From assembly GCA_017499595.2 (NCBI GenBank), contig CM038999.1, forward strand, positions 186,001 through 250,000: 64,000 nt of DNA, written 5' to 3'. How positions within the stretch are numbered: the first letter of the stretch is position 1; each line of letters begins with the position of its first letter. The translations under genes were made by a program, and so were the position numbers. This document shows, one piece after another, positions 24,738-64,000 of the stretch. Under the pieces are notes generated by a model that was not told the origin of the DNA, did no database searches, and saw nothing but the letters and a program-made list of their open reading frames with translations. The DNA is from Psilocybe cubensis. Its lineage: Eukaryota.

Positions 24738-26552
24738 GGGTGGGAGCGAGGTGGTCGCCCTCCTTTTGGACTCCTGTCGGGTGACGAGAGGAGTAGGTAT
24801 GGAAGGTTTACGTGACAGTGTGATGGACGGAGAATTTTCCTCGGTGATGAGCCGGGGGAAGAAGTTGTCGATGTCAAAAAAAAAGTGGAAGGCTATCTGG
24901 TAAAGGCAGCCTCACTAACAGTAGGTTGGACTCAGGAAACCTGGAAAGACAGGACAACAATGTCTTCGTTCCGTGTGGTAAGAGACCAGTAATACAGCGT
25001 GTGTAAACTACGTACCTTCGTTCCGTGTGGTAAGAGACCAGGAACAAAGGTAAAGGAAAACAAAATTTGTGTCTACGGAATCATGTAATGTGTGTGTGTT
25101 GATGCGTGATCACTATGTGTCTAGAGGGTGTTTGTAAAAGGGTAAGTCTGGAGGTAAATTCTGCAAACCTGACATGTGTATGTATCATTCTGCGTCTATT
25201 GAGTCTTGAATATGGTGTCTCCCGTCTGAAGTCTGGAGGACACCAAGCTGAGAAACGGCAACCCTTACCACGCGTACGTTGGTAATGTAGACACCGACAT
25301 GTTGGTGTAATACCATCATGATGTCATAACATTAATATCTTTCTAGTTGAGGTGCTTGGCAAGGTGGATGTATGCATTGACAATAAGTACGTTCCGACTC
25401 CATCTGGTAGTAGGTGCATTGGTAAATCTGATTTGTCTACATGACAATGTAACTGTGAAGATGAGAGAAGCATGATCTACAGCATTTTGAGGTCAATATG
25501 TCATATGTATGTACATATATTATATAATACGAGAACGAGGTCCAAGCGAAATGGAGTTTATACCTAACGGGTGCACTGTGTGTCTAGAATATACATAACG
25601 GGAAAGATAAAAAGTCATGATGTTTAATGATTGGTTGGTATAGGACCAGCGCAGTGCGCTCGTCGCTGACTTCCGGTCGGGATAGAAGGATATCAACGAT
25701 GCGTTGGTGTCCATTCTTCTGTGCGAATTCAAGTGCTGTATAACCATTGATATTTCGCAAATTGATGTCAATGCCAGGAACTATGAGGAGGCGCTTCACA
25801 ATGTTAATGTGTCCATGTTGAGATGCCCATATAAGCGCCGTGGTGCCAAATTTGCTTTTGGTATTTACATCGACCTCCAGGAAACCAAGAAGGGTATCTA
25901 CAATAGAGAGGTAGTCTTTTTGTGCCGCCAATATAAGAGGCGGAAATATATCTTGGTAATGGGCAGTAGTAGCAGTATTGATATCTGGGAGAGTTAACAA
26001 TTGTTTAACCACATTAGGTTTGCAATTCACTAATGCCCATGTAAGTGCTGTATTGCCATCCTTGGTTGGAATATTTATGTACACGTCCGGGAATTCAAGG
26101 AGGGTATCCACAATGGAGTCATGCCCACTGAATGAGGCACTCATAAGAGCTGTCAATCCTGTTTCATTCTGTGCATTAATGTTGATGTTGGGGACCAACA
26201 ACAGGCGTTTAACCACATCTAGATAACCATTTCCTGATCCCCATATAAGTGCTGTATCTCCAAGTTTGGTCTGGATATTTATATCCACCTCCGGAAAAGA
26301 CAGGATGACATCCACAATAGAGCAGTGATTGAGTGCCGAGGCATATATAAGAGCCGTCCATCCACCTGGGCCCTGCGCATTAATATTAATTTCCGGGACC
26401 GACAACAGGCGCTTGACAACGTCAAGATAACCATTGCATGATGCTGATGCAAGTGGCGTGCTTTTAAGTTTGGTTTGGATATTCACATCCACCTCCGGGG
26501 ACCCAAGAAGAGCATCCACAATGAAGCAGTTTCCGATACTCGAGCCAAGTAA

Positions 26553-27290
26553 AAGAGCTGACCAACCATCATTATTCTGTGTATTGACAGAGATTCCCGG
26601 AACTGACAATAGGCGCTTAACAACATCAAGATGACCATTGGCTGATGCCCAAGTAAGTGCTGTGTCTCCAAATTTGTTTTGGATATTTACATCCACATCC
26701 AGAAACGAAAGGATGGAGTCCACAACAGAGCAGTACCCATAACGTGAGGCATATATGAGAGCCGTCCATCCATTTGTGCACTGTGTATTAACATTGATTT
26801 GCGGGACTGACAATAAGCACTTAACAACATCAACATGACCATTGCTTAATGCCAGTGTCAGTGCTGTGTTGCCACATCTGGTTTGTAAATTTATATTCAC
26901 CTCCGGAATCGCCAAAATAGTGTCCAGAGTTGAACAGTGACCGAAACGTGAGGCAAGTACAAGAGCTGACCAACCATCATTATTCTGTGTATTGACATAG
27001 ATTCCCGGAACTAACAATAGGCGCTTAACCACATCGAGATGGCCATTGGCTGATGCCCAATTAAGTGCCGTGTCTCCAAATTTGTTTTGGATATTTACAT
27101 CCACATCCAGAAACGAAAGGATGGAGTCCACAACAGAGCAGTACCCATAACATGAGGCATATATGAGAGCCGTCCATCCATTTGTGCACTGTGTATTAAC
27201 ATTGATTTGCGGGACTGACAACAGGCGCGTAACAACGTCAACATGACCATTGATTAATGCCAGTGTCAGTGCTGTGTTGCCAGATTCGGT
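26553..27290 (-). repeat. Recent 408-bp (four ankyrin) internal duplication in NLR 1
   Basis: aagagctgaccaaccatcattattctgtgtattgaca at 26553 and 26961 (offset 408 = 4 x 34 codons), with long near-identical continuation. Confidence 0.85.
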
Positions 27291-29803
27291 TTGGATATTT
27301 ACATCCACCTCCGGGAAAGACAAGATGGTGTCCACAATTGAGCAGTAACCAGAACTCGAGGCAACTATAAGGGAGGTCCATCCTTGGATGTTTTGTGCGT
27401 TGACATGGATTTCCGGAACTGACAAGAGACGTTTAACTATATCGAGATGGCCGCTGTACGATGCCCACATCAGTGCGGTGTCCCCCACTTTGGTTTGCAC
27501 ATTAATATCCGCTTCCGGAAAAGCAAGGATGGTATCAACAATAGAGTAGTAGCCTTGACGCGAGGCGGAGGTAAGAGCCGTCCATCCTTCAATAGTCAGT
27601 GCATTGACATCGATTTCCGGCACAGATAACAAACGCATGACCCGTGATTAATGCACATATTAATGCTGTCAGACCACGTTTGTCTTGCAAATTTACATCC
27701 ACCTGTGGAAAACAAAGAAGGACGTCCACTGCGGGGCAGTGACCCTGTGCAGAAGCATACATGAGAGCCATTGCTTTGTAAGAATCCCGACCATTGACAT
27801 TAATGTCTGGGGCAGCTAAAAGACTCTGGAGAACATCAACGTGACCATGACTTGCGGCAAACATAAGCGCTGTGAGTCCACTGCATTCAAAACATGTGTT
27901 TCTGAGATCCATCCCGTTAGGGAAGGAATCCATAGTCGGCGGATGGTCATTGCTTCCTCTGTTATATTCGACCAGTGTGGAACCTGGATTGTTACCCAAA
28001 TTGACGTCAATGCCAGGGATGGTTAAAAGACGTTTGACAACCTCTTTCTGACCTGCCGATGAAGCAAGCATAAGTGGTGTCATTCCCTCAGCGTGTTCAA
28101 CGTGCCTAGTGTCCAAATACCTTAGTTGACAGCGAATTAACTCGTACAATTGCTCTGATCCTATTATGTATACATTGGGGTTGATGATTTTTGATGTAAA
28201 AAGGATGTCGATAATGGGCACATAGCCCTCAACTGTAGCACGGACAAGGGCAGTGAGACTTTGCCGACCGGATATTTCCATCCTGAATTTTGAGATCATG
28301 AACAGAGCCTGTGCAATACTGTTGTGGCCACGAATTATTGCAACAGATAGAGCCGTAAGCCCATTGCTGTCCCTCAAGTCGGGATCAAGTCCAGGGACTC
28401 CTAGAAGGCTTTCGAATATTTGTAAAGAATTCTTGGTGGCAGCAAGTAGGAGTGCAGTGTGTCCGTTGTCGTCTTGAGAGTTCACATCAATACTAGGATG
28501 TTGGAGTAAGAGTCTAGCGACATCTGTACAATCTTTTAAGCAGGCGTATAGAAGTGACGTGCGTCCATTCAGATCGGTGGCATTGATATCAATGTTGGAG
28601 CAAGCAAGCAGGGCGCGGACAGTGTCAATGTTGCCTATATGTGATGCATGCATGAGAGCAGTAGTGCCTCTGACGTCCTGGATATTCGGATTAATTTTCC
28701 TCATCGAAACAAGTGTGCGGATGATACTGATTCGATTAAGAATGGACGAGTACATTAACGCTGTAAGGCCCCTTTTGTTCCATAAATTGAGATTGATGTC
28801 TTTGTGAAGAAGGAGCATGTTGACAATTAAGTGATGGCCTTCCTTACACGCGAGAATGAGCGCAGTGTCCCCGCTGTTTGTCTGTACATTTACGTCAATA
28901 CAAGTAGATTCGAGAAGAGACTTGACCACTGTGGTGCACCCATTTAGTGCAGCAAGTGTGAGAGGAGTATGCCTCTTGGTCGTGCGAGAATTGCACGAGT
29001 CTTCCCAGCAGAACGGAACCCGAAGACCATAGTAAGCAATGACATGGCCAGGAGTGATCCAACTGAAACCAATGCGAGAGTCAAACAACGGATAATTGGG
29101 GGTATGAAGCACAAAATCAACCAGGATTTCCGTGGGGTAAGACTCTGCATCACACTTGCCGACGTGAAAAGTCCAATTCTGATACGCATAGTCGAGGAGA
29201 GGTGCGTCCTAAGATTTCACAAGAGCTTCAAAGGACGCATATGACAGCTTGTCTAGCATTGTGAAGCGGAACGCAGTAAGGTAAGAAATGCAAGCCTTTC
29301 CAAGAAATGTATGCAGTGCTTGGATCAGCTTCTCAGGATGATTATTCAAAAACTTGTATGCTGTATGGTCTAAACAGGGAGGTTGTATGATCAACATGGA
29401 TGTCCAATCATCACTGTAAGTCAAATGTAACTCACGGACGAGGCGCACAGTTTCACTTCGGGGCAGAATTTCAATGATCCCACAGGACGAAGTGCTAAAC
29501 ATGTCTTGTATAGGAATGTCCCTTGCGTGGAACGAATTCTCCCCCTCCCGGATAGCAAGTGCATGTTGGAGCTCGGCGATTGTTAATGGACGACGAGCAT
29601 TCATAATCCACGTCATGGCACGTTTTGCAAATAATGGATACTCGCCCTGTTGGGAATCAATCCTGTTCATTATGGAGAGGTACATTGATTGCACGTCGTC
29701 AGGGAGTCTGTCCAAACTGTTTGATAACAAGGACATGGTGGTGTATCCCTGTAAGGACTGTGACTTGAGCACCGCAAGGAGGAACCTGCAAGATGTGTCA
29801 GGA

Positions 29804-31846
29804 CATCAACTAAACAGACAGTAGATTACAATGCAATGTAAACCAATACAATAATTTTTTAGTCTTACAAATCCACCCAATTTTCGGGGCCCGGTTTACA
29901 ATGTAAAGCAAAAGTTTTATTAGGTTAGAAAGTGGTCATAATTATTCAATTTAAATTTTTATTCATTTGAGTAAGTAGTAGGGACATGTTGGCATCTCAC
30001 CCCATTTATGGGTTGTTGGGGCAATGTGTGTACATTGAAAGTGCATGCAATATCAGACTAGTGTGCATGCACGTTCTCCTTCCCCACCTGCAGACCAGTG
30101 CAGTGTGCCAAGGATGGGGTGCTAATACCCATCAGACGATTATAAAAATGAAAAAGGTAAACACTTCTTCTCAGAAAGCAGGATGAAGGGCTTCTCGAAC
30201 TCGACGCGTTGGGACTTGGTGTTGGTGATGAAGTAGAGTGAAATGTAACCACGGTCGAAGCACATACCCTCGGTGATCTCAATTTCGTCCTCAATCGTCT
30301 TTCCCTCCTTTCCGACCTTCTCCATCGCCTGAGCAATCAATCCTCTAACGTGGGCGTCACCGTTTGCGGAAATAGTGGCTACCTGTGCAATTTCGGCGGT
30401 TGTCATGATAGTTTTGGCGTGTGCAGAGAGGAAAGAGACAACGCGGTCGACGGCGGCCTGAGACCCACGGCGCAGGTCCATGGAGTTGCATCCAGCTGCA
30501 ACGTTCTTGACACCTTCTGAGTAGATGGCACGCGCAAGAACAGTGGCGGTTGTCGTGCCGTCTCCAGCAATCTTGTTTGTTTTCAATGCAACATCTTGAA
30601 TCAGGCTGAACAAATCTACTTAGCACTTTGCACAAAAACAACAAAAATGAAAAGAAGTACCGAGCGCCCAGGTTCTCAAACTTGTCTTTGAGAGTTATAG
30701 ACTTTGCAACCATCACACCGTCTACCAACAACCAGACCCTCGTCAGCAAACAAGCTGCCTCTCCCAGAACCACGGAACACGCACCCTTAGTGATTTTTGG
30801 TCCACCGTACGCCTGCTCAATGATCACATTGCGACCCTTGGTCCAAGTGTCGCACATCGACACAACTATCCGAGCTATGTGAAATAGGTGCCAGTGGTTT
30901 TGACTTGGACTCAGACTTGGAGATGTTTGTCAAACACGATCAGCAGATGTCGGAGCTTCAAAATCAAATCAAGCGGAGCCTGAACTCACTTGAAGTCCCG
31001 TTGCAAGCAAATGATCACATCCACTTTGTTTACTTTCTTCCAACCACCACCATCCTCTGCCCACGGATATACCTGGGGGCAAGGTACGTGTATTCATTGT
31101 GATGTCTCCTTCTCAAACTAACATCATACAGACCTTCCTTTAACCAAAACAAGTTAGTAGATTATACTTTTTTGGTGAGTAATAGATGATTCTCACTCGG
31201 TGCTCATCAGTACTCACCACATACTAGGACCAACTATCTTGAACACTTGGGATGAAGGGTCAGTATTTTAGTCTCTATTTAGTGTGCTTTACACTACTAA
31301 CATTACTTGTGGAAGGTCCCGGACAACCAGACACTTGGATACAGACTTGAAAGCATGTACATGTGAGTATATGCGCTTTTTATTGGTTTTTGATTCATTT
31401 TTTGATGCATATATTTTGCTCCTCCTTTGCCCGTACCACTTCAGCTGTTCCGAATGCTTGAAGCTGCCTTTTCCCGTGTGTCTTCACCATTCACACCTTC
31501 TTTGTGTCATTGAGTGTAGGAATTGTCAGCTTCAGGTTCTGTTTTGGTGTTGAGGGTCTGGAGCCATGCACACTAGCATGTGGGTTCAATGTGTCTTACA
31601 TATATAGTTGTACTATTTTTATGAATAAATAATCTATTTTTCATTATGATTTTTGTGTGCTCCAAAAGGCATTACAATTGCAATACCCAAAAATATTGTA
31701 AACCTCAAAATATTTTATTCATGCTGCAATATTTCCGTTTTCTTACAACATTTCAAGAGCGTTGTAACACAGTGCGAGAATTTTGAAGAAAAAAATATTT
31801 TATTGGGTTTACAATGCTTTGTAATCTACCCGCACTTTTTATGATG
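29804..31846. mobile_element. Non-autonomous TIR element (CACTA/CMC-like) with captured host gene fragment
   Basis: CATCA...TGATG ends and imperfect TIRs with core GTAGATTACAAxGCAxTGTAAACC. Apparent 2-bp TSD GA. Subterminal TTACAAT/ATTGTAA repeats. Removal restores a 52-nt intron matching the 51-nt intron of NLR 2. Confidence 0.75.
30165..30842 (-). pseudogene. HSP60: Chaperonin 60 (GroEL family, HSP60) gene fragment with two introns
   Basis: [91 protein letters not shown]; truncated at both ends. Confidence 0.93.
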
Positions 31847-33769
31847 GATATGTTTGAATCGTCCCAAGGGAAGGTGACGCACATTCCGTTGGAAATGCTC
31901 AGAATCTTGTCACATATCTTGTTCATAAAGTCTGTGTGTTGTCCCACTATCCGAGCGACGCTGGTCGTAATCCGTATGCTATTGTGAAGAAATAGACGAA
32001 TATCTTCTTGATTCTGGTCCCCAATGGTCATGTGTATAGTGTCCGGTGGAAAAATCGAAAACCTTGAAACCAATCATTCGTGACGTGATCAACAGTGACA
32101 CGGGGAGGTCTCGAAGAATAGACACGAGCTCAATTTGTTCAAGATCCGGCAACTCGTCCAGACCATCCAGTACAACGCGAACGTTTTTGAAATACTTTAT
32201 CATATTAGAGAGTATTGAAACCAGTTCTGTTTTCGATGGACGGCTTCGTCGTACTTGGTGAGCATCGTACACTGTAAGGACATGCTCAGCAATCGTTGAA
32301 ATGCTCGAGTGATTTGCAAAAATCTGGGCAATTAGGGATCCCAAATATTGTGAAATTGTCCAGGTTTTATTGTGTCGACAGTACAAGAAGATAGCGGCAT
32401 CGGTGCCTGGAGCATCGGAGAAGCGCAGATTCATGAGGTAGTCAATAACAATTGACCTAGCATTTGCGCATAAGGAATAAGTTTAGGATTTGTTATGGAA
32501 ACTTACGCAATGATTGTCTTCCCCAATCCAGCTATCAACTATGTGATTAGATGCTTCAAGAACTAGAGTAAAATGAGACTCACACTTTCCATCTAATAGC
32601 AGAATACACCTATATCCGGATATCCAGTCCTTGAATTCCGTGGAAGACAAAAACCATTTGCCAGTTCCCATTGTGCGCTTTGAAAGGGTATCATAGTGAA
32701 ATGCTTCTGATGTGATGGGAGTTAACCATTCTACAATGTTAAGAATTTCTGCACATATCATCAGGACTTCGGTGTAGGTTTCCAAATTTTGGTGCAAATA
32801 CCCTGATTTCGGCAATACATATCTCCTTTCCCCATGTACACGGTTTCACCTGCAACGATTGTTGCATTATGAAGATTGGTAAAGTTGGCATTGGTGTATG
32901 CTCGCAATCCTGGGATGGTTAATCAATGTACTGTCAGCGGAGTACTCAAACCACACAAAGGTTTAATGAACCAGTACCTGTCGAGGTCACCGAGTTGTTT
33001 AAGGTGCTCATTACTGACAATCCAATGCCAAAGTGACCGAGAAGTAAGGGTGTTGACTGTATTCGCCTGCCGAGAGGGTGGTTGGGGTGGGAAGGTCTCT
33101 TCGCGTTTCTACGCCCTGGACCCGTTTAAACTGCCCTTGTTGAATCGTGTGAGCGTAACCAAAATAGTCCTGATGCAGTGTTTTTATAAATATAGAGCTC
33201 CCTTCATCATCCCAAACCCAGCGACATACTGTCAAACCGTGCACCAACAACAGTGCCGCAATGATGCCGGGTGCTGTTCAAACCTCTCCCCAGTGCCGAT
33301 GCTGCCGCGTATTCATGCTCAGGTTAAAGCTCCGCCTAAGTGATGTGCCGTACGGCAACGACCCGCTTCATGATTGCTCATTCGTTAAAGCAAACTCTAC
33401 CGTTATACGTAGAAAATGCATCCCATTCATTGTTTTTTTACGCATGCATATCATGATGGTCGCTATTAGTATCAGCGGCATCCGTCTGAAATAGATCACA
33501 GCTACATCTGTTCTTGACACCTGTGCTGTCACCCGAATTATAACAAACTCATGCCACAACACTTTTGTATGCCGTGCTGCTGCCTACAGCAGCTGTAGAA
33601 CTGTCAGCAATAAAAAATGATCTCTTCGCACCATGCATCTACGAACATCCCAACGCGTGGGAAGATGATGAATGAACAGAATTTTCCACACAACAGATGC
33701 AATGTGTAGTATCAGAAAAAGGAAAAGAAAAAGAAGAACATGGTTGAATTGCTTTATGTCCAAGCGCCA

Positions 33770-34175: not shown

Positions 34176-37100
34176 TTGCGTGCCCGCTTGTGAATTGATT
34201 ATACAGCGTTTAGGAGTCGTATGTTTTGGACACCGATTACGGTGCTGTAAAAAATAGGAGGCACCACCGATTGTAAGTATGTATACAGCATGAGCACAAA
34301 CCACCACAGCGTCCACATGTTGGCGTTTGCTCAATGGGCACCAAGCACATCAATAACGACGACCAGCCAAACTTGCTCAATGTAATATCCAATTCCAAAT
34401 TCACTTATGAAGTGTACCCAGCCTCTCCCAATTCTTCTAAGAATCTCCTCCTTCCATTGCCCCTGAAATCCTCTCACTGTCACTTGACTGCATCACGCCC
34501 AGTATATGACAGGTTCACAGCAACAAGGAGGGAATGAAAAGAGAATAACAAAAGAAAAGGCGATATGTGTGGGATGTATTGCAGATGAAGAAGGAAAAGG
34601 TAAGGTAATCCAAGCCAAGCGGGTGGAAAGGACTGCGCGCAACGCAGCACGCCGGCCAAATTCGCAAAGCGAGTCTCAGCGCAGGTATAACAACATGCAT
34701 TCAACGTACAACCCTCCTGCACCCGCGCTGACGCTGTGTTCCTTGAATCGATCAAACACACTGTCCAACTTATGGCACCCGCTACGCTTCACTCCTCTTC
34801 CTATACATGTGGTCCTCATTTTCCTTCTCATTCTGGTGATATTGCCCGCTATCCGGCTGCGCCTCACAGAGTCTATCGAGATTGTAGACAGACGCTCACA
34901 CACACCGAGCTCATACCCGACGCAACTCTGTTCAGCACAGCCACTTCTCTGTCCTACACCTCTGTCAGTGTCTGCTCAGCGGGTGCCTCCCCCTGGTCCA
35001 AGAGAAGCATGGACGTCAAACATGCGGATGTGGAACTTGGGTGTTGCGGTGTGAACCACGCGTGTCTGGTGGTTGAATTGAGTACCACTCGCGAGTTCCA
35101 GAAATAGTACGGCAACATTGTCCCACCGCGTCTCATCCATCTCCGTCGTCGGATGCTTCTCTCCGCATCTTGGGTTGTCGTCGTCGTCGATGGTGGTGGC
35201 CCGTCAGAAGTGGTTAGTCACGCGTCATGGTTCACCCAGTGGTGGTGCCGTATTTGGTCTTGTTATGCACGGGGCATAAACAAAAATAGCATCATGCACA
35301 GTTTTCTTGCTTGGCTCTTCCACTGCTTACCTAGATGCGGGTCTTCAATTCCAAACTCATCCCAAGCGAGAGCTGAATCTACTATGATCCTAAAATCAGT
35401 AGGGAAGAACTAAATGAAAGAAAGAAACTCGCCAAAAGATTGTTACGGTTAGTCCGAATACCCCTGGGACGTGTTTTTGCCGCTAGTACTGGTCCTACTA
35501 TTCAATCCTGGCTGCCCTTCTTCCCTAGCGGACGCCTCTTTCTCCTTGGTGGTGCGTCAATTTCTTTAGTGGAAACATTATCGAAGTTAATAGATTGGAT
35601 AGAAAGCGGCTGTCATGTGGTCGGTCAACGTGTGAGAAGACAGAGTATTGGATGGGTCATTTTATTTGACAGCGAGACCGGGTCCAAACATTCATCCTGG
35701 CACTGTATCAAGGCTCGCGGCTAGACTCTAGTGCACGTATGAGAATGCTTTCCTGGGACTGCATCGATTAACCCGTTAGTCCCTCATGATTCATAATAGA
35801 TAATCATATCCAGTCTGTTTTGCGAATTTCATTCAACCTAACTCACTTTCTTTTTTAACTTTCTTTAGAATTTGAGCTGCATAAAACAGGTTTTGTCGTT
35901 ATCACACCAACTCCTCCTCATAAATCTCGATATTCTGTACCGACGCGACACGACGCGTGTGGACGTTGACATTAAGACGAATCGAGTCCTCGTCAAATCC
36001 TGTCCAGATTTGCACGTACTCCTACTGGGAAAACACACCAACAACGTGCGTACGGTGTGAGTATCACTTCTCAGTAAGAATTAATTGTTTGTGTATCCTC
36101 GACCGCTTGCCTGTATCAGCACATCCTCCATCTTCACATCCTCCTTCTGCACAGTCATTTTGTCTATATGAAAGTATAATTGCGAATAGAAAAGAAGTCC
36201 AATATACAGTATAGTGAGGCATATATGTCATCTGTATGTACACATATTATATATACCGCGAGAACGAGAGACAAGTGAAAAGGAGTTAATACCCAAAAGT
36301 TGTACTTTTTGTCTAAAATATGCATAGTGGGACAGAGAAATAGTCTGCGGTTTGATGATCGGCTGGTATAGGACAAGCGCGGTACGCTCGTCGCTCACTT
36401 CAGGACGGGAGAACAGTATATCCACAATGGATTGATGCCTTGTCGTTCGTGCCATTTCGAGTGCTGTATAGCCATTGATGTCTCGCAAATTGATATCCAT
36501 CGCAGGGAATGTTAGGAGGCTTTTCACTATATCAATGTGTCCATTGACCGATGCCCGTGTAAGTGCTGTGTTGCCGTACTTATCTTGGATATTTATATCC
36601 ACCTTTGGAAAACCAAGGATAGCGTCTACGATAGAACAGTAACCATCTCTTGCAGCATACATGAGAGCTGTACATCCATCAATATTTTGTATATTGACAT
36701 TGGTATCCGGGAAAGATAAGAGGCTCTTAACAACATTAACATGACCCCGATATGCTGCCAATGTAAGCGCTGTTTCGTCATTGTTGGTTTGGATATTTAC
36801 ATTCACATTCTGACTACCAATGAGGGCATCCACAATAGAGCAGTACCCATCTGTAGAAGCATTTATCAGAGCTGTGAGTCCATCGGTATTTTGTGCATTG
36901 ACATTGAGTGGTGGGACGGACAAGAGGCGCTTAACAACATCAAGATGACCTCCATATGCTGCCAACATAAGCGCGGTGTCTCCCAAGTTGGTTTGGATAT
37001 TTACATCAACCTTTTGAAAGCCGAGGAGGGCGTCCACTACAGAGCGGTGACCATTTGCTGAAGCAGCTATCAAAGCTGTGAATCCATCGGTATTTTGTGC

Positions 37101-39293
37101 ATTGACATTAATTTCCTGGGAAGACAAGAGGCGCTTAACAACATCAAGGTGATCATTGCAGGATGCAATCATAAGCGGTGTATTCCCGTATGCGGTTTTG
37201 ATGTTTATATCCACCTTCTGAGAACCAAGCATGGCATCCACAATAGAACCATAACCATTTGCCAAAGCATAATTGAGAGCTGTGAATCCATCTGTATTTT
37301 TTGTATTGACATTGACTCCCGGGACAGACAAGAGGTGCTTAACAACATCAAGATGACCTTGATATGCTGCCCATATAAGTGCTGTATCGCCAAATCTGTT
37401 TTGAATATTTACGTCCACCTCCGGAAAACGCAGAATTTCGGCCACAATCGAGCTGTAACCATTACGGGAAGCAAATATGAGAGCTGTAAATCCATTGGTA
37501 GTTTTAGTATTGACATTGATGTCTGGGACAGACAACAGGCGCTTAACCACACCGAGATGACCATGATATGACGAGTGGATAATGTATGATGGGCAACGAC
37601 CAGTATCCCCAGAAGAAGGATAGTTCATCAATGTCGCATAAATGAGAGCGGTATATCCATCACGGTCACGTCCGTTAACATTGATTTCTGGGAGTGTTAA
37701 AAGGTGCTCCACCACATCGATGTGTCCGTGGCCAGCGGCAAACATCAGCGCCGTGATTCCACTGCCCTCAAAACATGTATGTTTGAGGTCTACCGGAGTG
37801 AGTAACGGATCCATAATTGAATGTTCGTAGCTCCCACCAACATAGGAGGCCAATGTGTAACTGGGCTGATTACCCAGATTCACATTGACACCTGGTACAG
37901 CTAATAAGCGCTTGACAACCTCTTTGTGACCTGCACATGAAGCAAGCATAAGTGGCGTCATTCCTTCAGCGTATTCTATTCGGTGACGTTCTTCCGAATA
38001 TCTCAGCTGATCGCGAAATAACTTGTACAATTGCTCCGATCCTGTTACGAATACGTTTGGATTGATGTGTCTTGATGTCAACAGGATATCGATAATTGGA
38101 ACATGGCCCTGAAGAGTAGCGCGGACAAAGGCCATGGTACCCTTATGGTGTGAGATATCCAACTGGATTTTAGAAATAGGAAGAAGAGCCTTCACAATAT
38201 CGTTGTGGCCACGCAGTACTGAGACAGATAATGCAGTGAGGCCATGGCTCTCCTTCAGGTCAGGATCGAGGTTAGGAACGCCCAGCAGCTCTTTAACAAT
38301 TGGTAAGGAGTTTTTTGCGGCAGCAATTAGCAGCGCAGTGTGTCCATTTTCATCTTGGCAGTTAACTTTGATTCCAGGCGTCCCGATCAAGAGGCTCGCG
38401 ACTGCTGTACGATCCTTTAAGCAAGCGTACAGAAGTGCAGTACGTCCATTCAGATCCGTGAGATTGATGTCGATGTTAGGGGAAGCAAGCAGTGCACAGA
38501 CAGTATCAATATCACCAATATGCGAGGCATTCATCAGGGCAGTAGTGCCTCTGACGTCCTGAGAATTCGGATTGACTTTCCTTGTCGAAATAAGGGCCTT
38601 GATTATATCAACGTGTCCAAGGATGGCGGAGTACATCAATGCTGTGAGGCCTCGTTTGTTGCATAAATTGGGGTTGTTGTCTTTACGCAGAAGAATCAGG
38701 TTAGCAGTGAATTTATGGCCCTCCTTGCAGGCAAGAATGAGTGCAGTATCTCCGCTGTTGGTCTGTGCATTTACATCGATACAATTGCATGACAGAAGGG
38801 CCTCGACCACTGTGGTGCACCACATAGGACAGTTGTATAATTACGTACCTTACGATATATTTAAAAATGATGAATTAACGTAACATACGGAGTGATTTAC
38901 AATAAGTACTAAACTAAAAATAGCCCGTCCCCTACGGTCCAGCTGGAACGGCTAATTTAGCCCTTGCCACACGGGCCATTTATAAATAAATGGCCCCCTC
39001 GCTGGCCCATGACGGACCGTCATATTTGACCCGTCAGCGCATCACGGCAAAATTCGGAGCCGACTGCTCGCAGGACTCGTCCACGGGCCGTCATATTCTG
39101 CCCGTAAATGAATCACAGGATCAGTCCAAGCCGTAATATTAGCTTGCGGTACCTTATCTACTCCGAAAGCTATGCTTGACGCGGGAAAATATGAGCCGTG
39201 TTTGAAGAACCCGGGACATAACATACCCAAAAATTACATTAATCAGTGCCTCCGATAATCGATTCACCTACCAACCCACTGTCTTCAAACATA

Positions 39294-42330: not shown

Positions 42331-42406
42331 GGTGGTCTTGTGGCAATATTGATCAGTTAGTTGGAGAAATATATAGATTACAAGTCTAGTGAATAGAACA
42401 GATGAC

Positions 42407-54241: not shown

Positions 54242-56775
54242 ACCACAGAGCCGTTGTCGGTAAAGCTGCTTCCCGTCATCAGTTTCGGGGCAAAATGCTT
54301 TGGGAAACCACGGAGCCGGTGTCGGCAAGGCTGTACTTCCCGCAAGCAGTCGGCTCCGAATTTTGCCGTGATGCGCAGACGGGTCAAATATGACGGTCCG
54401 TCATGGGCCAGCGAGGGGGCCATTTATTTATAAATGGCCCGTGTGGCAAGGGCTAAATTAGCCGTTCCAGCTGGACCGTAGGGGACGGGCTATTTTTAGT
54501 TTAGTACTTATTGTAAATCACTCCGTATGTTACGTTAATTCATCATTTTTAAATATATCGTAAGGTACGTAATTATACAACTGTCCTATGTGGGTGCACC
54601 CATTCAAAGCAGCGATTGTGAGAGGAGTGTACTTCTTGGCTGTCCGAACGTTGCAAAAGTCATCCCAGAAGAACGGCACCCGGAGATCGTAGTATGCAAT
54701 GACGTGGCCTGGATTGAACCAATTGAACCCAATCCGAGGGTCAAACAGCGGAAAATTGGGAGTTTGGACCACAAAATTATGCACAGCCTCAGTGGGATAT
54801 GATTCTGCATCACAGTTGCCGATGTGAACCGTCCAATTCTGATACGCATACTCGAGTAAAGGAGCATTGTGAGATTTTACCAGAGCTTCAAAGGCAGCAT
54901 ATGGCAACTTTTCCAGTGTGGTAAAGTGGAAAGCAGTCAGGTAGGAAATGCATGTCTTTGCAATAAACGCGTGTGGTGACTGGATCAGATTCTCAGGGTG
55001 ATCATTCAAAAACTCGTATGCTGTATGATCTAAACAGTCCTTTTGTCAATACTGCCCCAACAATCGTGCAAATCTGGGGTGACTCACGGACAAGGCGCAC
55101 AGTTTGACTTATTGGCTGAATTTCAATGAGCCCACAGGACGAAGTGATAAGCGTATCTTGGGCAGGAATGTCTCTGTCATTGAATGTGCTCCCTTCCTCC
55201 CGCATAGCAAGTGCATGTTCGAGCTCAGCTATGGTTAATGGGCGACGAGCGTACATGATCCAAGTAATGGCGCGTTTCGCAAAGGACGGGTATTCCCCCT
55301 TTTGGGAATTAATCCTGCCCATAAGGGAGAGATACATTGATTGTACATCGTCGGGCAGTCCATCTAAACTATTTGATAAGCTTGTCATGGTGGTGTACCC
55401 CTGTAAGGACTGTGACTTCAGTGTTGCAAGTAGGAACCTAAAAATGAATCAATAATATATTTAAAATGTCATAGAGAAATTGACTCACATTCCGCTAGAT
55501 ATAGTCAAGATCTTATCGCATATTTCCTCCAGAAATCCCTTGTTTCTTCGCAGTATCCGAGAAACACTAGCCGTCCGTGGTATGGCATCGTGGAGAAATA
55601 GGCGAATATCCTCATGATTTTGGTCCCCTATGTTCATGTGTATAGTGTCCTGTGGAAAATCAAATACCTCGAAACCAATCTTTCGTGATGTGACCAATAA
55701 TGAAACCGGAAGGCCTCGGAAAATAGACATGAGTTCAATCTGTTCACGATCCGGCAACTCGTCCAGACCATCCAGTAAAAGTCGACCATTTTTGAAACAG
55801 ATTAGCATAGTGTAAAGTATTGTGACTAACTCGGTCTTTGAAGGTCTGCTTCGTTGTGTTCGATGCACATCATACAAGTTATGGACATCCTCTGTAACCG
55901 ACGGAAGGTGTCTGTACATTGTGAGCACCTGGCTAATCAGGGACCCCAAATAATTCGATATATTCCAGGCTTCGTTGTGTCGACAGTACAGGAAGAGAAC
56001 AGCCTCGGAGCCAGAGACATCTGCAAGGCAAAACCTCATGAGGTATTCAATAACAATTGCCCTAGTTTGTGTGAATAAGAAATAAATATAGAATTTGTTC
56101 ATCTAAACTCACGCAATAACAGTCTTTCCTGAGCCAGCAATTACACAGGCATTTAGTCGTGGCAATTAGTGAAACAAAATAATACTCACGCTTCCCATCC
56201 AGCAACAGGATACTTCTTTGACCAAACATCCATTTCTTGAATTGGGGAGAAGACAGAAACCACTCTCCAGTTCCCGGTGTTCGCTTTGAAAGGGTATCAT
56301 AATGAATTGATTCTGATGCTATCGGCGATAACCATTCTACAATATTACGAGTTTCTACACATATCATCAGGTTTGTCACGCAAATTCTGAGGGTTCTGCG
56401 ATAAATACCCTGATTACGGCCATGCACATGTTCATTTCCTATGTATACCGTCTCCCCTGCAACAATCGTTGGATTATAAAGGTTGGTGAAGCTAGCATTG
56501 GGATACGCCCGAAATCCTGCAACGGTCAGGCACGCTGTTAGCAGACAACTCGGCGCCCAGCAACTTGGCTGAAACCATACCTGTCGAAGCCACCGAATTA
56601 TGTGAAGTGTTCATTGATCGTCGAGAGTAAAATAATGGCGTTGACTGTTTAGGTCTGCCAAAGGAGATGATGGGAGGGAAGGCTTTCTTGAATTGGCTTC
56701 GGTGCTCCATTTAAGCATTATACTTGCTGCACTGCCCTCGCGTATTCAAGTTATCGCTGTAAGTGTGATAATTAA

Positions 56776-59067
56776 GGGCATACAGAAATCAGCGTGGCTG
56801 CTCGCGTGCGTGCGTTTTTGCGTGTGCTTGCGTGACACGCATTTTTGCGCAAGAACTATGTTCTGCACGCATATTGATGTGTGCTGCACGCATTGTCACA
56901 GCTGTGTCACACGTAGGATTTTAATGTAAAAGTGCTCGTTAGCGTTTATTTATAATTATTTGGTGCGTAATAATGTATTGTTAGTATGCCCTTGTACTAT
57001 GCCGGCCACCACCATGGGTATCAAGCAGTTAGGATGTAGGTTATTACATTGTTTATGCTGTATTTGAACTAATTAACATCATATATGCCTTTAAAAGTCT
57101 ATAATACATGGTACGTGTAGGTGTTTGAGGCTCGGAACCGGTAGAACTTCAATTTGTTGTTACAGGGCCATACAAACAATGAACTCAAGTGACAAGGGAT
57201 GGTTTGGTATGCCGTGTCCCTCGGCGTGTGCCTTGCAACAATCTCCGACTCCCCAACCAAGAGTCGGCAATAAGATCGGCAAAGGTTTATGATCGGTAAT
57301 ATCCGATCAAACGGTGAACTTGGAGAAACACGACAATTTTGTCTATTTGACATGCAACTTATGTTGTTCAACGACCACCAGCGTGACACCACAGCACGCT
57401 AGGTGCACTCAAAGGCACGCATTTGCCACGCAAGCAGCACGCGACCCACTTTCCCACGTTAACGCGATGGCACGCGACGGCACGCAATAGCACGCGACCC
57501 AATTAAGTGCGTGTAATTGGCACGCAAACAGTTGTGATCTGCACGCGATGGTCCCGCAAGCACTTTAAGATTGCACGCTAGTACGAGATAATGCGTTTTG
57601 TATTATTCTACTGCAAAATATGTTTGGATGTACCATTAGATATATTGAATGTTTCAAAGATTCAAATAAATTAAAAAGTGAAACTCAAAGTATCCGATGA
57701 AGACTGCATGGAGATTGATGACGCTAAGTCCGACACTGGAGAGTCAGAGCGTCCTGACACGCCTATAGTAGAGAACCATCTTGATAAAGAGGAAGATCCA
57801 CCGAGTTTGCTGGATGGTGCTAAATGTGAGGTTGAAGGGGAAGAACCACCGAATTCGCTGGATGGTAAACAAATGGAAGAATAGGTCCCACCTAATGGTT
57901 CAGATTCTGGCAGAGAATCCTCGCTCCCCCATTCTCAAGTTTCATCTATGCCAGATCCACTCTTCTCCACTAATTGTCGCTGTGGTGCCACCGGTAACGG
58001 AAAAATACTATATCGTGATGATCTTGAAGGTGCAGTCATACAGTGCAACTCCTGCCAAGAGTTGTCGCATATAGCTTGTCAGCGTCATGGCAGAGCGTGT
58101 AGGCTTCACATAAAGGATACATTCACATGCCATCATTGCAATCTCGATGTTTTGGAGAAGTTTGATCGCAGACAAGTCTCTGAGTGCAGGTATTAACTCC
58201 ACTCTAAGTTTGTTTTACACTATTAAATGTCAATTCTTTTTGTTTCAGGGAGATGGAAGATCGCACTCTCTCAAAGAAGCCCTTACACGAACGACTTCGA
58301 CGAGGAAGGGAGTTTTGGCAAAGCACGGATCATTCTGGTATCCCGCTCGTTTAATTCATCTGAAGAACAACGAAGGTTTATTTGGCGTACGCTGGTGGCG
58401 AGGTTGCCAATTTCAGGATCCTGGAGTAAAACCTGATACTGTGAGCTTTGTGGGTCAATTAGATATCGTTGACTTTGTGGGGTGATAGATACGGACGTCG
58501 TCAGATCCAGGTCAGTTCATCTATGTGGCTGAAATAATCCTACATATAATCATAGATATTTTGCTCGGAAAATGGGAACAAGCATCTCAGATCCCCACGG
58601 ACGATGATATACTGTCCGATCCATAATCAACTCCTTATTCATGTGAAGTAGACGAGGCTCTCACACCGGCAAAGAAGATACTGTAAGACCTTCTTTGCGA
58701 AAAGGTTGATTCAAACCTTGTTCCTGCAAAAGCTTGGCTGGAAAGCAAGAATAAGGACATCTTCAAAACCATCATTCCCTGGATGACAATTAGTTGTTTA
58801 GTACAACTGAATGCGTAGCATACTACATTCCTTGCAGAAAATAGTGTAATATACATTGATTTTCATGCGAATATTATACAGAACTTTGCACGCAAATAGC
58901 ACGGTACTTCAACAACGCTGCACGCGTTTCAACATCATGTACACGCAAGACATAGCATTTCGCACGCAAAGTCATGTGAAAGACACACAAATTTGCTGAT
59001 TCGCATTTATGCGTGGCACGCAAAAATAGGTCGCACGCGGGCTAACCACGCTGATTTCCTGGTGCCC
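56776..59067. mobile_element. MULE-like non-autonomous element, 2,292 bp
   Basis: 9-bp TSD GATAATTAA at 56767-56775 and 59068-59076. Imperfect TIRs GGGCA..GAAATCAGCGTGG..CGCGTGCG..TTTTTGCGTG. Many GCACGC/GCGTGC subterminal motifs. No transposase core seen. Confidence 0.85.
57678..58800 (+). pseudogene. PHD-finger plus Tudor/SH3-like barrel fragment inside the MULE-like element
   Basis: CRCG...IQCNSCQELSHIAC...FTCHHC (C4HC3), then VLAKHGSFWYPARLI...VRWWRGC; stops and frameshifts downstream. Confidence 0.65.
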
Positions 59068-59251
59068 GATAATTAAGATAATCCAATTGCAGTGTCATTC
59101 ACGACGATCATATCAATCAACACTATAAATACCAGTAGAGTGTCAGTGTGAGTACACATGTACTTGTTTTTGTTCTTTCCGGGATATGTAGCCCTAGGGT
59201 AGCATATCCGGCAACCATAACGGACAGCCATAGTAATTGGGTTGCTTTATC

Positions 59252-62140
59252 TCAAGCACCAATATGGATAAACATAATCCATCGATCCAACGGTATTCCA
59301 TTCTTTCTCATTGTCCTGATAGCTGAATTCAACGCTTTAGCAGAATCTTTGAAATTGGCCATAGTCCCATCGCGGAACATATCTTTGTAGAATGCCTGCG
59401 CAATGGTCGGCCCATCCTCGTCGTTCATTTCCCACATAGTCCCTACCACGCTTCGGAATCCACAGAACTGCAACGCAGCCGAGAGATGGATGCTTTCGTC
59501 TGGGGTACGAGTGTCTCCCGCAGCACTGTGACATGCAGAAAGAAATGCGAGCTCGGCGTTTGGTAACTTTGCTCGCATGAGACTTAGAAGTGTGAGAGGC
59601 TTGCCATGAAGCTCGAACGACGCCCTGAAGGGATGTTCTTTGCTGCCTAAGCGGCCATGGCATGCAAAATGGACCCATGAATATTGCTTTAGAAGTGCTA
59701 GTACCGAGTTGCGAGTAGCTTTGGATTCCATGAGGACGTTTACATGCTCCCCGTGTTGTCGAATAATATTTACTTCATCGTGAACCCTTGTGAGGTGATG
59801 TCCAGGCTGACCCACTACGAGCAGCTTTGGAATATTGAGTTTCTGATTGAGGTTCGACCTCGCTTTAATCAACGCGGATAATGTAGGGGTATAAGAAGAT
59901 ATATAGATATCAGGGAGATTTTTTTCTCCCGGCCGATATGGACCGGCTGCGTGAAGAGGCAAGGCGCATAGCTCGGATGTTGGGCACCACCATATACGCT
60001 CACCCTCCCTAACTCCCATCTCTTTGAGTCTCTGAACCACAGGGGATACAATTGTGCTCCAAAGTTCACGAACTGTCCGTATGATCTCTCTTGGGAAAGA
60101 AAGTTTGCTGGCCTGTTCGATCAAGTCCTCTCGCCGGATATATGATAATGGGACGAGTGTAGGGGTTCTGTTGGAAAAGAGAATGATCGCATCACAGCGA
60201 TACTTGCTAATGTTGACAAGTATGACTGGACCTTCCGCTGCTGCTGTCTGAAGCATCTTGAAGGGTGGTGCCCTTAGGAAATTCTCAAACCCCTCAATTT
60301 GTCGAATTTCTTCCACCGTCGCCTCCCATTCTTCCTGTAGAATTCGGTGTTTTCTTACTTGTGAGTCCAGGCCCGGAGCGGATGAAACCATAACGTCGCC
60401 CTCCAGAGTAGACCCTTCGGGTTTCAGAAGGATCCCTTCCAGCTGGGAATTTATAGATCCCAGTCGATCAGCTAGTCCGATGGTTCCTTCGACCCGACGA
60501 AGCTCCTCCAATGGATCTTTGTACGACGCCACCTTAGACCACAGCAGTGCTCTTCCTTGTTCAAGCAACTCCACAGCCTCCTCGAGCTTTCCTGTATCTA
60601 TGACAGCCGCGGCGGCGTCAGACGCCAGATATTTTGGGACCTTGGCTGTTGCTAGAAATTGTTGTTGTCGTTCGATGTCTCCGTGGACAATCAAAGAGCG
60701 GTTAAGAAGATGCATTGTCGATTTACATGCGGAAAGAAGGGTGTTATGCCGGAAGTAAAATGCTTGTTTCATCCAGGTTACAGATGCGGTCACCCGGTTT
60801 TGTAGAAACGATGTGGGATCCTCTGAGGCCTCTTGGTACAGTTGAAAGGCTTCTTCGAGATCTTGTTCCTGATGCAACTCCTTATGACGACTGGCAAGCA
60901 CACACGCCATACTTTGGAGCGCCAACGAACGGCGTGGGTGACCACTCGTGAAATGATCAAGTGCTTCGCGATGTAGCACAATGGCTTCTTCAAGGTGCTC
61001 CAAGTTTCCTTGTTGCTCGTATGCAGTCCGTAAAACATAGGCGAGATTGTTGAGAGACCCTGGGCGATCAGGATGTCCGTTAGGCCGAAGATTGAGAGCT
61101 TGGCGGTGTAAAAATATTACTTCTTTTAGGCCATCCATATCTATGGAGCCATCTTGCTGCACACTGCGAAGCTGAATCACAGTAGCAAGGTTATTTAGAG
61201 ACTTTGGTCGACTAGGGTGTCCAGGAGGACATAGAGCTAGTGCTTCGCGGTGACATGAGATAGCTTCCTCCAGATCCTTAACCTCACCATATCCCACGTA
61301 TCGTATTTTGAGTGTGTTGGCGAGGTTGTTAAGCGGGACAGAGCGGTCTGGATGGCCTGGAGGAAGCAGAACAAGAGACTCCCGATGCAGTGAAATGGCC
61401 TCTTCCAGGTCCTCCGCTGTGCTAATTTGATCATAGTGATGCATGACGACAACAGCCAGGTTGTTAAGAGATTTCTGGCGCTCTGGGTGGCCAGGAAGGC
61501 GGAGGCTCAATGCCTCGCGATGTGCGGTTATACTCTCCTCTAGATCTTCCATGGATCCATTCAGTTCGTAGCGAGATTGGAGTGCACTGGCTAGGCTGTG
61601 TAGAGACTGTGAACGATCTGGATGACCAATAGGACACAGGCCAAGTGATTCACGAGTATGTGAGATTGATTCTTCTAAATCTTTTGTGGCTCCTTGCTGC
61701 CGATAGAGAGTTCGAAGAGCGTTCGCAAGATGGTTGAGAGATGCTGGACGATTTGGATGGCCAGAAGGATGGCCACTAAGAGCCTCACGGTGCAATGTGA
61801 TGGCTTCCTGTATAGCATCAATGTCTCCTTGTTGCTTATAACTATCTTGTAGGGCCAGAGCGAGGTTCCGAAGAGACAAAGTGCGTTGTGGGTGGCCAGG
61901 GGCACATAAAGCAACCGATTTACGGAAATTCAGAATTGATTCCTGAAGATCTTTGATTAATCCCAACTTTTTATAACGATACAGAAATGAAATCCCAAGA
62001 GCAAAGAAGACTGCGTTGTTATCGGTTTGATCAGGGGACAGAAGTTTGAGTGCAGCTTGGTGATGAACAATGGTATCGTCTATGTCCTCAATAGTCCCCA
62101 AATGATTAGATCGCGCAACAAGCCCGTCTTCAAGGTTCAT
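59252..62140 (-). CDS. TPR-repeat CHAT-domain (caspase-HetF) cysteine protease
   Basis: About ten 42-aa TPR-like units (GHPDRSxSLNNLA..L..DLEEAI..HREAL), AVELLEQGR, RIWWCPT, LPLHAAG, SSYTPTLSAL, catalytic dyad motifs WVHFACHG and AFLSACHSA, VVGTMW. Open for 962 codons; true 5' end uncertain. Confidence 0.93.
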   Translation of the reverse strand: MNLEDGLVARSNHLGTIEDIDDTIVHHQAALKLLSPDQTDNNAVFFALGISFLYRYKKLGLIKDLQESILNFRKSVALCAPGHPQRTLSLRNLALALQDSYKQQGDIDAIQEAITLHREALSGHPSGHPNRPASLNHLANALRTLYRQQGATKDLEESISHTRESLGLCPIGHPDRSQSLHSLASALQSRYELNGSMEDLEESITAHREALSLRLPGHPERQKSLNNLAVVVMHHYDQISTAEDLEEAISLHRESLVLLPPGHPDRSVPLNNLANTLKIRYVGYGEVKDLEEAISCHREALALCPPGHPSRPKSLNNLATVIQLRSVQQDGSIDMDGLKEVIFLHRQALNLRPNGHPDRPGSLNNLAYVLRTAYEQQGNLEHLEEAIVLHREALDHFTSGHPRRSLALQSMACVLASRHKELHQEQDLEEAFQLYQEASEDPTSFLQNRVTASVTWMKQAFYFRHNTLLSACKSTMHLLNRSLIVHGDIERQQQFLATAKVPKYLASDAAAAVIDTGKLEEAVELLEQGRALLWSKVASYKDPLEELRRVEGTIGLADRLGSINSQLEGILLKPEGSTLEGDVMVSSAPGLDSQVRKHRILQEEWEATVEEIRQIEGFENFLRAPPFKMLQTAAAEGPVILVNISKYRCDAIILFSNRTPTLVPLSYIRREDLIEQASKLSFPREIIRTVRELWSTIVSPVVQRLKEMGVREGERIWWCPTSELCALPLHAAGPYRPGEKNLPDIYISSYTPTLSALIKARSNLNQKLNIPKLLVVGQPGHHLTRVHDEVNIIRQHGEHVNVLMESKATRNSVLALLKQYSWVHFACHGRLGSKEHPFRASFELHGKPLTLLSLMRAKLPNAELAFLSACHSAAGDTRTPDESIHLSAALQFCGFRSVVGTMWEMNDEDGPTIAQAFYKDMFRDGTMANFKDSAKALNSAIRTMRKNGIPLDRWIMFIHIGA

Positions 62141-62761: not shown

Positions 62762-64000
62762 ATGCTTACGCAAGCGCAGGATAGGCCCAACGGCGTATCT
62801 TCAGGAGCAGGCATTAACGCATTCGAGGGTGCAGTCTTTGAGGACTCGGAGGGGAGCTTATTCGCCACCACAGCTGGGAGCGTGTTTATCTATGACCACA
62901 ACTACGCACACGGCTTTTGTACGTTTTTCTTTGAAGCGAGTCGAGTCAAGTGTTTGACCTGACATTCCATTTATCAATGTCCATCTCTCAAGCACCAGTA
63001 CGCCTCAGAAATCAACTGGCACGCGACTCGGGAGGTATGCTGTGCAGGTACACGCACCCAGAGAACACTGTGCACAACCGTTCAGATCCAGGTTCCTCCA
63101 GCAGCCTCGTGCAGCAGCAGCAACAGTACCAGATGCATACCCCACGCGGCCCCATAACAGCGTTCAAGCAGGCGCACTTCCGAAATCATAAGGCTAGCAA
63201 GCAATTGGTGTCTGAGGGTGACATCTATATTGCTCACGCTCCCAATCGCGCGTGCTGTTCTGATGTTAAAGGAGGTGACCAGGTCGAGGGGGCGCTCGTG
63301 CAGACACATAAACAAGCAATAGAGGGATGGTCGGGGACACCACTTCTTGATATATCACCACATTCGTCTTCCCTCACGCATTCGCAGATGCAGATCCAAC
63401 CGTATTCCAATCCGTATCAGCATCAGTTTTTGCAGCCTGCGCAGGACATTGCAACAGAAAGCGGCCATGCCCAAAGTGCACCTTCGAATGTGCAGACAAC
63501 GTCGCATGTCCCCAACGGCCCCCATGGTCAGATCACGCCGTATTATGGCTCCTCTAATGTTCAGAGCACCGCATATGTCCAAAACACTGCTCATGGTCCG
63601 TGTATACCCCACACCCAAAGCACCTCTCACCACACTCCCCTACATGTGCAAAGCGCTTCCCACTCCCAAACCAACACCAACACCGACGCCAACACCGCCA
63701 ACACCAACCCCAGCAGCCCCAACAACAACACTAATACCAACATCGCCAACACGAACCCCAGCACCGACGTTGCAAATATGCGGCCTCCATCCCCTCCACC
63801 AACTCCATCTTCATCTCCGTCACCGTCGATGTCGATGTCGATATCCACGCCAAGGTCCAGGTCAGAACCTGCGATGCTCCGAGAATCGCTCAACAAGCAG
63901 TCTCTGAGCAATAAACGTACGTTACGTTTTAGCCATGTTAAGACGGTCGATATCGACTCAGGTTGTCTGACTGCTAATGTATTTTCGTTAGCCGATCGCG
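62762..64000 (+). CDS. Partial gene with two N-terminal candidate amyloid pseudo-repeats followed by a low-complexity linker; runs off the window
   Basis: Exons 62762-62918, 62993-63034 and 63086-63916 are joined in frame by canonical introns (GTACGT..CAAG, GTATGC..TCAG, GTACGT..TTAG). The frame has no stop from 62995 to the window end, which is why the ORF track misses it. Confidence 0.72.

Follow-up and report, generated by a model that had tools for sequence, protein, structure and literature searches.

A transcribed gene with charge-complementary N-terminal repeats near NACHT-ankyrin NLR genes of Psilocybe cubensis: a tentative effector-side partner of inverted topology

Where might the effector-side partners of the amyloid-like motifs found on NOD-like receptors (NLRs) of mushroom-forming fungi be? 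A survey of Agaricomycetes listed 689 NLRs with the N-terminal motifs NLR05, NLR08, NLR22, NLR29 or NLR44 (Wojciechowski et al. 2022, PMC9815663); it reports no effector bearing those motifs, whether beside the NLR gene or elsewhere in the genome, having searched C-termini only (for neighbours within 20 kb, the last 100 aa), and the few effector cases that it proposes are MLKL-like (BaMLKL) or HeLo proteins whose motif is C-terminal. We considered this question in a stretch of 64,000 nucleotides from Psilocybe cubensis (contig CM038999.1, positions 186,001 to 250,000 of the forward strand; the whole stretch is henceforth referred to as ‘the window’). At its right-hand end, a first-pass annotation made from the sequence had proposed a hidden gene with two charge-complementary pseudo-repeats, R1 and R2, that match the N-terminal motif of two NLRs in the same window, and had placed it head-to-head with the gene of a CHAT protease. 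We show here that this gene (henceforth ‘the candidate’) is transcribed and spliced, that it encodes an internal repeat with complementary charges, and that it is clustered with NLR genes whose products have a motif-bearing N-terminus followed by a NACHT region. The explanation that we favour, tentatively and without calling it probable, is that the candidate is the effector-side, amyloid-like partner of a small local family of NACHT-ankyrin NLRs, with a topology that is inverted relative to the known partners.

The candidate was modelled with three exons, of which the last leaves the window after nine bases:
62762..62918, forward strand: exon 1 (residues 1-52 and the first base of codon 53; contains R1)
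62919..62992, forward strand: intron 1 (74 nt, GT..AG, phase 1)
62993..63916, forward strand: exon 2 (residues 53-360: spacer, R2 and a linker rich in Q/N/S/T/P/H)
63917..63991, forward strand: intron 2 (GT..AG, phase 1)
From 63992 off the window end (nine bases inside), forward strand: exon 3 (224-aa C-terminal region, residues 361-584)
The start codon is the ATG at 62762. The joint 62918->62993 was seen in one contig each of the sequencing runs X9 and X10, which come from one study and are RNA by the tool’s guess only, no run being recorded as RNA; in the DNA runs X1 and X7 the contigs continue through the intron at 62919-62992 and the joint is absent. On the 5' side of the candidate the RNA-like contigs begin at 62621 (X9) and 62687 (X10), and their loose ends after 63916 begin with the letters of 63992-64000, with no mismatch in X10 and one in X9. 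From 1.84 billion representative sequences HMMER retrieved P0001, an annotated hypothetical protein of 584 aa from Psilocybe cubensis, which is 100% identical over the query, has the same junctions and served as the source of the sequence past the window. Because the joint is present in X9 and X10, absent from the DNA runs and matched by an identical public protein, the candidate is a real, spliced and expressed gene. It is also already annotated and hence, contrary to the earlier claim, not hidden; the proposal that its exons are spliced together was borne out.

An out-of-frame ATG lies upstream at 62682, in the 5' leader, and its reading frame overlaps the main start. It falls inside the X9 contig and just 5' of the start of the X10 contig, and might damp translation of the candidate.

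The two pseudo-repeats lie on separate exons near the N-terminus of the 584-residue protein, as first described, and their coordinates and sequences were found to be as originally given:
62810..62890, forward strand: R1, first pseudo-repeat (residues 17-43, net charge -4)
63151..63231, forward strand: R2, second pseudo-repeat (residues 106-132, net charge +2)
The spacer between them is 62 aa (89 aa from start to start) and not the ~72 aa that the first-pass annotation had stated. R1 and R2 align without gaps, with 8 identities in 27 columns and a BLOSUM62 score of 33, and share the pattern hydrophobic-x-A-aromatic-x-x-A-x-F-x-[DN], followed later by G-x-[VI]-[FY]-I. A score of 33 was reached by none of 100,000 shuffles in fixed register and, when the best match anywhere in shuffled exon-2 products was taken, by none of 5000 (mean 6.0, standard deviation (SD) 4.6). 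When all six frames of the window are considered, an unrelated site at 51326 (+) scores 34 against the 33 of R1 and R2, so that the similarity is significant inside one protein but not window-wide. We consider the likeness, as a matter of sequence, convincing as an internal repeat that would not stand out genome-wide. The E/K, E/R and E/K exchanges that had been noted at three aligned positions were recovered at columns 6, 11 and 14, no column has the same charge in both repeats, and this complementarity has a p of 0.016 under permutation of the 19 variable columns. The repeats of the HET-s prion domain are likewise joined by salt bridges between opposite charges.

Among strains, the difference 62882 G>A (X9) turns the conserved Val of R1 into Met, a conservative change, and 63001 C>T (X9 and X7) turns an Arg of the spacer between R1 and R2 into Cys, by our own reading of the codons. 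Within R2 no strain difference is listed among the run contigs compared.

Two NLR genes, which are NACHT-ankyrin (NACHT-ANK) paralogues, lie in the window, the second of them in two parts:
25584..33011, reverse strand: NLR1 (exon 1 at 33011-32978, motif exon at 32909-32802)
54587..56614, reverse strand: NLR2, 5' part (exon 1 at 56614-56581, motif exon at 56516-56409, exon 3 from 56354)
36321..38819, reverse strand: NLR2, 3' part, ankyrin repeats (tblastn match to residues 556-1332 of P0004; Pfam Ank)
Both genes have a short first exon (11 codons and one base), a 108-nt motif exon and then the NACHT region, and the motif starts at 32910 (-) in NLR1 and at 56517 (-) in NLR2, so that the N-termini are as the first-pass annotation had described them. 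P0004 is a third, intact paralogue of 1340 aa, encoded on the same 4.3-Mb contig outside the window; it has the same N-terminal motif, its annotated junctions agree with those deduced for NLR1 and NLR2, and its residues 5-559 map by tblastn to the 5' part of NLR2. A word-based protein search with the motif exon of NLR1 returned no annotated protein carrying it. The motif fills roughly residues 5-40 in all three proteins and the NPHP3_N/NACHT match begins at residue 68 of P0004. The motif is thus found at the extreme N-terminus, where an effector domain would stand, and such an N-terminus is typical of the known amyloid-signalling NLRs. At least three NLR paralogues (two in the window and P0004 elsewhere) bear one copy of the motif, which is uncharged (net charge 0), one residue shorter than R1 and R2 and weakly similar to them. 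From the ATG of the candidate to that of NLR2 the distance is 6.1 kb, which shrinks to 3.8 kb when the 2.3-kb repeat missing from run X7 is left out.

By locus-tag number, P0004 is ~19 gene models away from the candidate.

Whether R1 and R2 are related to the NLR motif was assessed by scanning a profile of the two, with one small gap allowed, over 127,816 six-frame positions of the window. NLR1 scored 18.0 and NLR2 17.0 (background mean -24.9, SD 9.0), and both sites rank in the top five once the self matches are set aside. By our own estimate, the chance of such a rank anywhere in an N-terminus of ~47 residues is ~p 0.002-0.004, NLR1 and NLR2 being counted once because they are paralogues. 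The candidate, NLR1 and NLR2 share a span of 109 nt from the motif Gly codon (its first base) to the phase-1 donor; the residues that precede the motif are alike in the candidate and the NLRs (an N-[SG]-V-[STA]-S stretch); and all copies are N-terminal in their proteins. The regular expression [ILVF]xA[FY]xxAx[FY] matches only the R1, R2, NLR1 and NLR2 sites in six frames of the whole window, and is post hoc, having been derived from these four sites. A recent segmental duplication was considered and rejected, as blastn detected no DNA similarity between the 5' regions of the candidate and the NLR genes; therefore, any common origin would be old. In our judgement it is probable, on this comparison, that R1 is homologous to the NLR motif exon, and the wider link of R1 and R2 to the N-terminal motif of the NLRs appears moderately supported. 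A predicted complex of P0001 residues 1-140 with P0004 residues 1-47 scored 0.18 against a mark of 0.34, which speaks neither for nor against binding.

Behind R2, residues 190-375 of P0001 consist to 65% of Q/N/S/T/P/H, which agrees with the long Q/N/T/S/P-rich linker first proposed, and ~170 residues of this linker separate the motif module from the C-terminal domain. No 19-residue window of P0001 is hydrophobic enough for a membrane helix. The first-pass annotation had advised extending the sequence past 64000 in order to identify the C-terminal domain: the C-terminal part, residues 361-584, which is encoded past the window, was recovered through P0001 but belongs to no described family. Word-based searches found one fragment of 100 aa, from another source, that is 64-66% identical to it, and the C-terminal domain therefore exists elsewhere and is conserved. 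P0002, the second hit of the HMMER search that retrieved P0001, was discarded as spurious because it is a tandem-repeat protein that matches over 39 residues only. Structure prediction, with poor models, suggests that the C-terminal fold consists mainly of strands with a few helices. When the low-confidence model of this part was compared with PDB by Foldseek, nothing matched at E <=0.001 (best E 0.028, template modelling (TM) score 0.2-0.3), and many of the rows returned with this poor model were leukocidins or hemolysins (E 0.03-0.5, TM 0.2-0.3). In the ESM Atlas the C-terminal part came closest to unnamed clusters (0.95-0.96; Actinomycetota and Ascomycota), the nearest named one being Leukocidin at 0.89, and the N-terminal 140 residues gave nothing usable. 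A kinship of the predicted domain with pore formers of the leukocidin/alpha-hemolysin type is thus taken as a lead only.

The arrangement of the locus resembles the HET-S/NWD2 pair and its HET-s-related amyloid motifs (HRAM) in that one motif precedes NACHT on the NLR, two pseudo-repeats are found on a separately encoded neighbour, the repeats of that neighbour are oppositely charged at aligned positions and the genes are clustered. It differs in that the double motif of the candidate is N-terminal, whereas that of HET-S is C-terminal, in that there is no HeLo domain, and in that the repeats, of 27 residues each, are 62 residues apart on two exons. Neither the HET-s_218-289 model nor any other prion-domain model of Pfam matched P0001, the motif exons or the N-terminus of P0004 at E <=10. 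With the NLRs that carry the Agaricomycete motifs the local NLRs share the fungal class, a short NACHT NLR N-terminus with the motif at the very end, and the presence of several NLR copies for each candidate effector; as far as a comparison by textual description goes, they also share a G[DN] pair after the hydrophobic C-terminal part of the motif. Unlike the effectors proposed for that class, the candidate has an N-terminal double motif on a domain that lacks a family.

As in the sigma and PP clusters (sesA/sesB/het-eN and HELLP/SBP/PNT1), where the accessible part of the source describes an NLR beside more than one pathway gene in variable order and orientation (PMC3321046), the NLR genes here have more than one neighbour of interest; unlike there, where every effector bears a C-terminal motif, the neighbouring CHAT protein has no motif copy. 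The sigma (GxGxQF, GGTQN), PP (NxGxQxGxN) and PUASM (FxGxGxQxxGxGxF) patterns are absent from P0001 and from residues 1-60 of P0004. Bacterial pairs with BASS motifs (Bell and other effectors) offer a further parallel, namely a single motif on the NLR and a double or triple one on the effector, bacterial effectors with double and triple motifs being described in the portion available of bioRxiv 10.1101/2020.01.06.895854; they are unlike the candidate in being prokaryotic, in having the motif C-terminal to the Bell domain and in belonging to different sequence families. Relative to every fungal pair described, the topology of the candidate is inverted: an N-terminal motif, a disordered linker of ~170 residues and a putative effector domain. 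Literature searches found no paper on an N-terminal double motif in a fungal effector and none on this protein.

If the candidate is the partner of the NLRs, its action can be imagined by analogy with these systems. As in HET-S/NWD2 and the bacterial BASS pairs, ligand-driven oligomerisation of the NLR would gather the N-terminal motifs, and the gathered motifs might serve as the template on which R1 and R2 fold into a beta-arch or solenoid of two charge-paired rungs. The resulting polymer would concentrate or release the 224-residue, strand-rich C-terminal domain, which in turn would carry out the response, probably cell death. Cutting of the linker by the neighbouring TPR-CHAT protease, suggested by adjacency alone, may provide a second, independent input.

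Several results weigh against this explanation. On the side of the motif, three unrelated sites score as high as the NLR sites or higher in the R1+R2 profile scan (20.0, 19.5 and 18.0). A hidden Markov model (HMM) of the three NLR motifs, which finds both NLR open reading frames (ORFs) with E 1.7e-29 and 1.5e-27, misses R1 and R2 (P0001 has E 31 and its sole domain is at residues 572-577). Smith-Waterman comparison of the NLR motifs with residues 1-190 gave p 0.042, 0.077 and 0.13 (2000 shuffles each), and among 1546 ORFs the three motifs rank the R1 ORF 194, 26 and 120 and the R2 ORF 9, 18 and 11. Identity of the NLR motifs to the product of exon 1 (the R1 region) in a MAFFT alignment is only 15-24%. 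The initial claim that the repeats match the NLR motif is, in this light, weakly supported: the profile rank and the shared 109-nt offset and phase speak for it, whereas the HMM and the pairwise tests do not. On the side of the protein, residues 361-584 have no family in Pfam, PADLOC and PDB-sequence searches, the best matches of P0001 being meaningless (DUF3931 with E 0.26 and a superoxide dismutase with E 5.4). The AlphaFold2 models are poor (mean predicted local distance difference test (pLDDT) 33.3 for the whole protein and 35.6 for the C-terminal 241 residues with one homologue). Residues 54-188 match only themselves among the 1.84 billion representatives, and word-based searches, which are insensitive to diverged motifs, gave no orthologue and, for the N-terminal motif side, only P0001 and P0004.

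Precedent and the state of the locus add to the difficulties. In the parts of PMC3321046 and PMC9815663 at hand, the effector-side motifs described from fungi (HET-s/HRAM, PP, sigma and PUASM) are all C-terminal. The general definition of such pairs places the effector-side motif behind a recognised cell-death or enzymatic domain (HeLo, HeLo-like, SesA, SesB, PNP_UDP or Bell), and P0001 has no such arrangement. According to the same portion of PMC9815663, a bulky domain placed C-terminal to PUASM, HELLF or RHIM motifs blocked the formation of foci in Podospora, and the excerpt of PMC3321046 describes paired motifs as more alike within a cluster than between orthologues. NLR2, the nearest NLR gene, is split at 54587/38819 by a transposon of 15.8 kb, and between 31882 and 29784 ~2.1 kb of foreign sequence breaks up NLR1. 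That neither NLR gene of the window is intact speaks against a working system at this very locus; the intact P0004 is encoded elsewhere on the contig.

Several of these points would be expected if the candidate were an evolutionary by-product, that is, a young, lineage-restricted chimera in which an NLR-type motif exon was duplicated internally to give R2 and was fused to a low-complexity stretch and to a C-terminal domain unrelated to it, the gene being expressed but without templated signalling and with at most a role as a decoy. The protein is an orphan that finds only itself for residues 54-188 and one 100-aa fragment for its C-terminal part, its motif exon ends at the same offset and in the same phase as those of the NLRs (which suggests descent at the level of the exon), transposons abound in the surrounding region (two KDZ elements, and Gypsy elements), R1 and R2 have strongly diverged from the NLR motif, as the HMM and Smith-Waterman results indicate, and the local NLR genes are disrupted. 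However, the lack of DNA-level similarity between the 5' regions means that the origin is not recent, and the retention of pattern positions and of complementary charges between R1 and R2 is unexpected under neutral decay. The 64-66% identity of the C-terminal part to a foreign fragment implies that this part is constrained, and the strain differences in R1 amount to a single conservative Val-to-Met change. We regard a by-product as possible, if on the unlikely side.

Somewhat less likely again, in our view, is that R1 and R2 are a weak internal repeat of a disordered orphan protein and that their likeness to the NLR tips is a coincidence. The uniting pattern comes from the very four sites that it matches, neither the NLR HMM nor the pairwise tests reach significance, R1 has an unrelated six-frame match as good as R2, and three unrelated sites equal or exceed the NLR sites in the profile scan. 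Coincidence would nevertheless have to place both NLR sites in the best five of 127,816 positions (by our estimate ~p 0.002-0.004), produce an identical 109-nt distance from anchor to intron together with the same intron phase, put every copy at an N-terminus in genes of one cluster and, within the candidate, yield a score for R1 and R2 that 0 of 5000 shuffles reached.

The remaining alternative concerns the gene on the other side of the candidate:
59252..62140, reverse strand: TPR-CHAT gene, divergent from the candidate (Pfam CHAT, E 9.5e-36; TPR_10, E 7.8e-33)
Its ORF translation has TPR_10 repeats in the N-terminal part and a CHAT domain at residues 703-975, in line with the CHAT protease first proposed, and the stretches around what we take to be the catalytic His and Cys look intact by eye. 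The first ATG of the ORF is at 62140, so that the head-to-head gap to the ATG of the candidate, first put at ~620 bp, measures 621 bp. A pattern scan found no motif copy in or upstream of the ORF. Contigs of run X9 cover 59556-60867, within the gene, at low depth; most of the gene and the 5' part of NLR2 are outside the X9 and X10 contigs, from which nothing is concluded. The two genes may be functionally linked, as far as adjacency indicates.

In Podospora the TPR-CHAT protein Q2L-6 cleaves the adjacent gasdermin Q1-6 (Clave et al. 2022, PMC8851545, in the portion available), and the present locus is like such gasdermin/HET-Q2-like clusters in that a TPR-CHAT gene of the same architecture adjoins a gene with a predicted strand-rich domain; the distance of 621 bp is well inside the 10 kb within which a protease gene (S8 or CHAT) is found in gasdermin clusters. 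It is unlike them in that the candidate has no detectable gasdermin homology (none for P0001 in Pfam or PADLOC at E <=10, and no Foldseek match at E <=0.001 with models of pLDDT 33-36) and has a 360-residue N-terminal extension with motifs and linker. That the candidate is an executioner gated by the protease, CHAT cutting the linker and freeing the C-terminal domain while the resemblance to the NLR motif is incidental or secondary, would fit the shared Q2L-6 architecture (TPR, then CHAT at about residues 700-975), the 19% of 1,884 fungal gasdermin genes that lie within 10 kb of a CHAT gene (both from the accessible part of PMC8851545), the head-to-head order, the accessibility of a disordered linker to proteases and the weak, sub-threshold leads to beta-barrel pore formers (Leukocidin 0.89; Foldseek E 0.03-0.5), but is improbable, given that P0001 matches neither gasdermin nor any other family (Pfam and PADLOC, E <=10) and no structure at E 0.001, that its order of domains is opposite to that of gasdermins, the putative killing domain being C-terminal behind the 360-residue extension, and that adjacency is the sole link.

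The partnership of the candidate with the NLRs can be extended to a general scheme, an inverted amyloid signalosome of mushroom-forming fungi in which the tip of a NACHT-ankyrin NLR would template an N-terminal prion-like module of two charge-paired rungs, followed by a long cleavable linker and a new strand-rich, possibly pore-forming executioner, with the adjacent TPR-CHAT protease as a second gate. We regard this scheme as a long shot. If true, it would explain why searches confined to C-termini found no partners for hundreds of Agaricomycete NLR motifs, and amyloid-type and protease-type control of cell death would converge on one effector. The more modest reading, in which the candidate is an effector, would bring with it a new effector domain and perhaps a connection to the caspase-like CHAT proteases. 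Should the resemblance to the NLR motif be a relic or due to chance, what remains is an orphan gene in an ordinary NLR cluster riddled with transposons. The candidate offers a concrete, expressed object with which to look for the effector partner that, in the part of PMC9815663 available, is missing for the Agaricomycete NLR motifs.

The mobile elements that shape the window are the following:
38820-54593: KDZ transposon inside NLR2 (15.8 kb; 256-nt inverted ends, 99% complementary)
56767-59067: high-copy repeat between NLR2 and the CHAT gene (2301 bp)
1604-7727, 14946-17212 and 20817-24911: Gypsy-type ORFs (reverse transcriptase, RNase H, integrase, chromodomain) and a second KDZ/CxC2 transposon
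The 15.8-kb element sits in the ankyrin-coding part of NLR2 and encodes KDZ transposase, CxC2 and Tet/JBP oxygenase domains. A contig of run X7 joins 56766 to 59068 and lacks the 2301-bp repeat, which is therefore an insertion polymorphism among strains. The ~2.1-kb insert of NLR1 (29785-31881) is located where NLR2 has a short intron, and within it, at 30140-30619 (-), lies a fragment of chaperonin-60 (Cpn60_TCP1).

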